A DNA stretch of 20,350 nucleotides from Escherichia coli (GTDB lineage: Bacteria; Pseudomonadota; Gammaproteobacteria; Enterobacterales; Enterobacteriaceae). The stretch lies in the NCBI RefSeq assembly GCF_003334335.1, contig NZ_QOWQ01000052.1. One strand, 5' to 3'. Every line of letters starts with the position of its first letter. Positions within the stretch are counted from its first letter, which is position 1. The notes beneath the pieces were generated by a model. The model worked only from the letters and a program-made list of their open reading frames with translations. It made no database searches and was not told where the DNA came from. Positions 14,649-14,665 of the stretch are shown in pieces. The position numbers and the translations under genes are program-made.

Positions 14649-14665
14649 TTGGAATATTTTTCCAA
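14649..14665. promoter_or_regulatory. AllR operator-like palindrome in the allA/allS divergent region
   Basis: TTGGAATA-T-TTTTCCAA, one mismatch from a perfect palindrome and 16 of 17 identical to the gcl-proximal site; centred in the 229-bp allA-allS spacer. Confidence 0.75.

Follow-up and report, generated by a model that had tools for sequence, protein, structure and literature searches.

A conserved palindrome between allA and allS of Escherichia coli very probably corresponds to the published operator of the AllR repressor

The control of allantoin genes by AllR has a published history: the abstracts of Rintoul 2002 and Hasegawa 2008 reportedly describe EMSA and DNase I protection experiments that placed one site, a conserved inverted repeat, in each control region, and they are said to state that glyoxylate abolishes AllR binding. 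AllR itself is reportedly a tetramer, an observation ascribed to Walker et al. in 2006, and IclR-family tetramers are mentioned in the literature. Later papers give a consistent account. According to PMC12535856, with which PMC10163214 agrees, both the allS-allA control region and the gcl promoter are targets of AllR binding, AllR represses allS, and glyoxylate acts as the inducer and allantoin as the corepressor of the system. PMC12535856 also cites Rintoul 2002 and Hasegawa 2008 for binding of purified AllR that is abolished by glyoxylate, and it presents regulator-level evidence, from allR mutants, for AllR control of the genes. The AllR motif is given as KTTGGAAWAWTWTTCCAAC, attributed to Rintoul et al. 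2002, in PMC8222616, and a 2026 paper (PMC13300388) prints AAATCTAGTTTTGGAAAAATATTCCAACTTTTGTATT as the 'AllR recognition site', citing Rintoul 2002, and models AllR on it. Our study concerns a palindrome at positions 14649-14665 of the window, that is, of the whole stretch of 20,350 nucleotides of E. coli DNA that was analysed. The allS-allA operator of Rintoul et al. 2002 (J Mol Biol 324:599) and Hasegawa et al. 2008 (Microbiology 154:3366) is the same site; the DNA, the regulator, the target genes and the effectors are the same as here, with no differences.

The window contains the E. coli K-12-type allantoin (all) gene cluster in reverse orientation. Many complete E. coli genomes match the segment 13900-15000 at 100% identity, and the segment was found in 5,405 of the 5,426 genomes; over the 361 bases surrounding the box, the window shows no difference from the K-12 derivatives DH10B and MC4100. 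The identities of allA, allS, allR and gcl rest on this 100% identity to RefSeq-annotated E. coli genomes, DH10B and MC4100 included. On the minus strand lie gcl (11297-13078, RefSeq annotation), the first gene of the operon under a sister operator; allR (13168-13983), which encodes the box-binding IclR-family repressor, a protein with 100% identity to WP_000141275.1 ('HTH-type transcriptional repressor AllR'); and allA (14061-14543), the ureidoglycolate lyase gene, which is controlled from the box. On the plus strand, allS (14773-15699), also controlled from the box, encodes the LysR-type activator of allD, and it is followed downstream by mnmH; allA and allS are open reading frames named, like mnmH, from the RefSeq annotation of identical DNA. 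Residues 95-271 of AllR match PDB entry 1TF1, a structure of the AllR effector domain entitled 'Negative regulator of allantoin and glyoxylate utilization operons' (E = 2e-110), and the repressor gene is encoded in cis, 0.7 kb from the box.

Two side observations concern the annotation of this locus and its integrity in other strains. The mechanical list of open reading frames starts gcl at 13168, giving a product of 623 aa and taking in the gcl promoter and its AllR box, while the annotated start is 13078 (593 aa). In two E. coli human isolates, PSS-04 and PSJ-32-1 (NZ_AP027666.1 and NZ_AP027642.1), the 13900-15000 segment matches in two pieces with an IS1B between them; this element is annotated together with two 'ureidoglycolate lyase' fragments, so that in these isolates allA is interrupted by IS1 beside the operator.

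Direct reading of the window gives exactly TTGGAATATTTTTCCAA at 14649-14665, a 17-base palindrome whose outer hexamers, TTGGAA and TTCCAA, form a perfect inverted repeat around a 5-base spacer, and in which 14 of the 17 positions are self-complementary. Its centre, 14657, falls 1 bp from the midpoint of the 229-bp allA/allS intergenic region. The allA start codon, whose A is 14543 on the minus strand, is 105 bases away from the palindrome, and the allS ATG (14773) is 107 bases away; the first-pass annotation had put these distances at about 105 and 108 bp. That annotation had also described the palindrome as a near-perfect copy of a gcl-proximal site, and indeed the only other copy in the window, TTGGAAAATTTTTCCAA at 13099-13115 beside gcl, differs from TTGGAATATTTTTCCAA by 1 base (16/17 identical). 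Its statement that the window holds these two copies only agrees with our counts as well: when TTGGAA-N5-TTCCAA was searched with at most one mismatch, 2 matches were obtained, both in promoter regions, versus 0.08 expected by chance from 100 dinucleotide-preserving shuffles, none of which (0/100) gave 2. The next best 17-mers of the window after these two copies each show at least 4 mismatches to TTGGAAWAWTWTTCCAA. Tandem palindromes 18-22 nt apart are common for IclR-family tetramers; by eye, no second palindrome was found 18-22 nt from the 14649-14665 box, the best secondary 17-mers of the window having 4-5 mismatches.

The match with the published site is almost complete. With one flanking base on each side, G-TTGGAATATTTTTCCAA-A agrees with the AllR motif KTTGGAAWAWTWTTCCAAC at 18 of 19 positions, the mismatch being the last flanking base (A for C). 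In addition, the 37-mer AAATCTAGTTTTGGAAAAATATTCCAACTTTTGTATT is the exact reverse complement of window positions 14639-14675; this 37-bp stretch, taken from PMC13300388, is symmetric about the box centre at 14657. The palindrome matches the published motif, lies in the published 37-mer and, as detailed below, is also the top-conserved 17-mer of the divergent allS-allA control region; together, the motif, the 37-mer and the conservation support the first-pass proposal of an AllR box that serves allA and allS as a single central operator. We consider it highly probable that the 14649-14665 palindrome is the single AllR operator (AllR box) of this divergent control region, and no evidence contradicting this reading was found. 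Since the citing papers report that binding experiments (EMSA with and without glyoxylate) have already been published, the operator is an already published one, and the first-pass reading is right but not new.

To place the box in a comparative context, we used one genome per species with AllS, which returned 21 loci. The allR-allA/allS arrangement is present in 17 of them, of which 16 reach gcl, with AllS identity going from 98% down to 63%; these 17 syntenic loci come from Escherichia, Citrobacter, Superficieibacter, Raoultella, Klebsiella, Izhakiella, Atlantibacter, Buttiauxella and other Enterobacteriaceae. Besides the E. coli window, the allS-allA box TTGGAA-N5-TTCCAA occurs at no more than one mismatch in 17/17 syntenic loci, and the gcl box occurs at the same threshold just upstream of gcl in 16/16 of the loci that extend to this gene. 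The remaining four allS-like loci (two from Budvicia, one from Pragia and one from Laribacter) contain neither allR nor allA within the 5-6 kb fetched, and no box at up to 2 mismatches was found there. Box and allR in cis co-occur in every locus examined. In an intergenic alignment of 17 sequences (E. coli and 16 other species), the box is the top-conserved 17-mer, with a mean column identity of 96%, reaching 98.5% in the half-sites, while the rest of the region stands at 60%. The distance from the box to the allA ATG is near-constant (92-106 nt, mostly 101-106), and that to the allS ATG is variable (77-107 nt). The central 5 bases are variable (TATTT, TAATT, AAATT, and others at gcl) and the half-sites are constant; because this central variation follows no compensatory logic, the pattern points to a dimeric protein site and not to an RNA stem.

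These data also bear on the idea that the palindrome is a chance product of an A/T-rich region, or an RNA hairpin or terminator, with no protein-binding role. The region is indeed A/T-rich, and a 6-bp stem can fold with -5.4 kcal/mol. Nevertheless, chance would give 0.08 copies where 2 were observed, the fold is no better than that of shuffled sequences (z = -1.6 and -0.95), and the half-sites are near invariant across 17 species in surrounding DNA that is 60% conserved, with a centre that changes without the compensatory logic of a stem-loop. A scan of 14480-14840 found no terminator-like site, and an Rfam search returned no family above threshold. We rejected this reading, which the shuffle counts, the conservation, the Rfam result and the folding z-scores refute, and we regard it as extremely improbable.

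Several observations were made on sequence variation around the box. Within a 61-mer around it, about half of the E. coli genomes show 1-3 differences from the window; among individual strains, F3398 carries G>C at the flanking K position (14648), and 2013C-4081 carries C>T at 14638. E. coli A8 (NZ_CP028766.1), which belongs to the 37 records of lowest identity (the 90-95% band), carries TTGGGATATTTTTCCAA, with a change at the equivalent of 14653, an A that is invariant across the 17 species. On the side of the databases, CACSKA010000001.1, labelled 'Chryseobacterium sp. 18061', contains an enterobacterial gcl-allR-allA/allS locus practically identical to that of 'Citrobacter sp. 18056', and it is probably a mislabelled or contaminated assembly.

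The paralogous glyoxylate-sensing repressor IclR might bind 14649-14665 instead of, or in addition to, AllR. IclR is the closest structure to AllR after AllR itself (1TD5, E = 1e-44), and its operator at aceB/iclR, given as TGGAAATNATTTCCA in PMC8222616, is likewise an A/T-rich palindrome with a TGGAA core that is bound by a glyoxylate-responsive IclR-family repressor. By eye, the inner 15 bases of our site, TGGAATATTTTTCCA, match this motif at 11 of its 14 specified positions on either strand. However, AllR and IclR are paralogues, so a partial match to the IclR motif is to be expected and is insufficient to assign the site to the IclR operators. The outer and central bases of the two operators differ, and the AllR motif, unlike the IclR motif, has as conserved features the outer T/A of TTGGAA...TTCCAA and the flanking G; the IclR operator belongs to a different regulon and has no allR linkage, whereas the present box co-occurs with allR in cis in every examined locus; and the literature consulted contains no report of IclR control of the all genes. 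Binding by IclR is, in our judgement, very unlikely, and AllR is retained as the regulator of the box.

The sister AllR operator, TTGGAAAATTTTTCCAA at 13099-13115 in the gcl promoter, is separated by 20 nt from the downstream gcl ATG, annotated at 13078. It shares with the allS-allA operator the architecture TTGGAA-N5-TTCCAA, one flank (AAAGTTGGAA in both) and the same repressor, but the two differ in their setting. At gcl the operator covers a core promoter, with a TTGACA -35 upstream of it and the ATG 20 nt away, and controls a single operon, whereas the allS-allA operator is over 100 nt away from either start codon and controls two divergent genes. Across species, the 5 bases at the centre are also more variable in the gcl box than in the allS-allA box. 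The perfect TTGACA read on the minus strand from 13132 to 13127 is likely the gcl -35, and the gcl box covers the only sensible -10 position downstream of it.

Three further observations concern this neighbourhood. On the minus strand, allR ends in an intrinsic terminator with a stem at 13155 to 13138 (7 pairs, 6 of them G-C) followed by a T-run at 13137 to 13131; since this T-run leads directly into TTGACA, the end of the allR transcript and the start of the gcl promoter share 2 nt. At 13072-13088, 27 bp away from the gcl box centre, lies a weak AllR-like 17-mer, TTGCCATTTTATTCCTA, which has 4 mismatches and overlaps the gcl start codon; it is probably due to chance, although IclR-family tetramers often use tandem sites. 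Finally, a RutR site has been reported 'upstream of the gcl operon' in PMC10163214; a search of the whole window (1-20350) for the RutR motif TTGACCANNTGGTCAA gave no convincing match, the two hits with 3 mismatches, in allC and allE, being at chance level.

The position of the box relative to the divergent promoters was then considered. A strict sigma-70 consensus scan of 14480-14840 found no promoter, and for this reason a looser PWM scan across the orthologues was applied, after which two geometries remained. The most likely arrangement, and probably the correct one, would consist of two back-to-back promoters whose -35 regions adjoin the stretch of about 37 bp covered by AllR, and the centre of the box would fall near position -52 of both. 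For allA, the putative core promoter occupies 14612-14640 on the minus strand, with a -35 TTGATG (14640 to 14635), a 17-nt spacer and a -10 TAGATT (14617 to 14612). By PWM score, TTGATG-17-TAGATT ranks first among the sigma-70-like pairs of the allA strand in 14 of the 17 sequences; its distance to the box centre is constant (39-40 nt), and it coincides with conserved blocks and invariant alignment columns. The allA transcript would then start near 14605, which would place the box centre near -52, and the 37-bp stretch would overlap the -35, with which it shares 2 nt. On the allS side, the candidate -10 region spans 14697-14710 on the plus strand and comprises TATCAT (14697-14702) and/or the extended -10 TGTAAAAAT (14702-14710); their PWM scores are weak, and the TG at 14702-14703 and the AA at 14706-14707 are invariant in the 17 sequences. 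These elements suggest an allS start near 14710-14717, about 52-60 nt from the box centre. It is important to consider two caveats in this flanking geometry: a repressor box centred near -52 is in an unusual position, and about half of the E. coli genomes have C>T at 14638, which changes the presumed allA -35 from TTGATG to TTAATG.

The second geometry keeps the same operator but makes the divergent promoters overlap face to face, with their -10 elements inside the palindrome as TGG-AATATT on the allS strand and TGG-AAAAAT on the allA strand; repression by AllR would then consist in direct coverage of both -10 hexamers, as is apparently the case at gcl, where the box overlaps the -10 position downstream of a perfect TTGACA. 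By PWM, -10-like hexamers preceded by TG appear on both strands in most of the 17 sequences, at offset -4 relative to the box centre; their mean score is the best of the allS strand (6.2) and the joint best of the allA strand (5.6). The invariant CCACA at 14679-14683 becomes TTGTGG when read on the allA strand, where it lies 17 nt upstream of AAAAAT. On the other hand, its -35 partners in E. coli are poor (ACAACA and TTGTGG) and change to ATGTGG in most species; the conserved blocks at 14611-14622 and 14697-14722 would be left unexplained within 5' UTRs; and TTGATG-17-TAGATT is the best allA-strand candidate in the 14 sequences mentioned. Any AllR box is -10-like by virtue of its A/T-rich centre, so that AllR binding already explains its conservation. 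We favour the flanking geometry because it explains the conserved blocks outside the box, while the -10-likeness of the box is already accounted for by the A/T-rich centre of the AllR site. The overlapping arrangement, and with it repression by direct coverage of the -10 elements, seems to us unlikely.

The allS side of the box shows additional features in the 17 sequences. The invariant CCACA (14679-14683) and a conserved block, TATCATGTAAAAATACTGATAAATCA (14697-14722, with invariant TG, AA, AA and C), are unexplained by the AllR box and could represent the allS core promoter or the site of another regulator. As an example of the latter, TGTAA/TGATA repeat 11 bp apart in the manner of an ArcA site, and allS is said to be expressed anaerobically.

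How AllR occupancy would block the promoters can be outlined as follows. As an IclR-family winged-helix repressor, AllR would act as a dimer within a tetramer, placing one recognition helix in each TTGGAA half-site; the half-site centres are 11 bp apart, about one helical turn, and so both half-sites are turned to the same side of the helix. From its position in the middle of the 229-bp intergenic region, AllR would bar RNA polymerase from both outward promoters together. AllR represses allA, encoding ureidoglycolate lyase, and allS, encoding the activator of the allD operon, and through the near-identical operator over the gcl core promoter it represses the gcl operon. According to the citing papers, glyoxylate frees AllR and leads to induction, and allantoin tightens the binding.

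A more elaborate possibility involves the two operators together, which are 1,550 bp apart in the window and 1,541-1,629 bp apart in 16 other species. Given that AllR is reportedly a tetramer and that each control region contains one palindrome, a single tetramer could bridge the allS-allA and gcl operators, looping out allA and allR and coupling repression at three promoters. As a separate idea, the box may serve at the same time as the -10 of both divergent promoters. The support for these ideas goes no further than the co-conservation of the two sites, and we consider this reading quite improbable.

The value of these results is one of confirmation, in that a first pass over raw sequence can find a genuine, experimentally characterised operator. 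The comparative data widen the E. coli site to more Enterobacterales, with both boxes strictly conserved from Escherichia to Buttiauxella and Atlantibacter, and leave the overall picture unchanged. In this picture, one repressor site in the middle of the intergenic region turns off both an enzyme gene, allA, and an activator gene, allS, the opener of the anaerobic nitrogen branch of allantoin catabolism.
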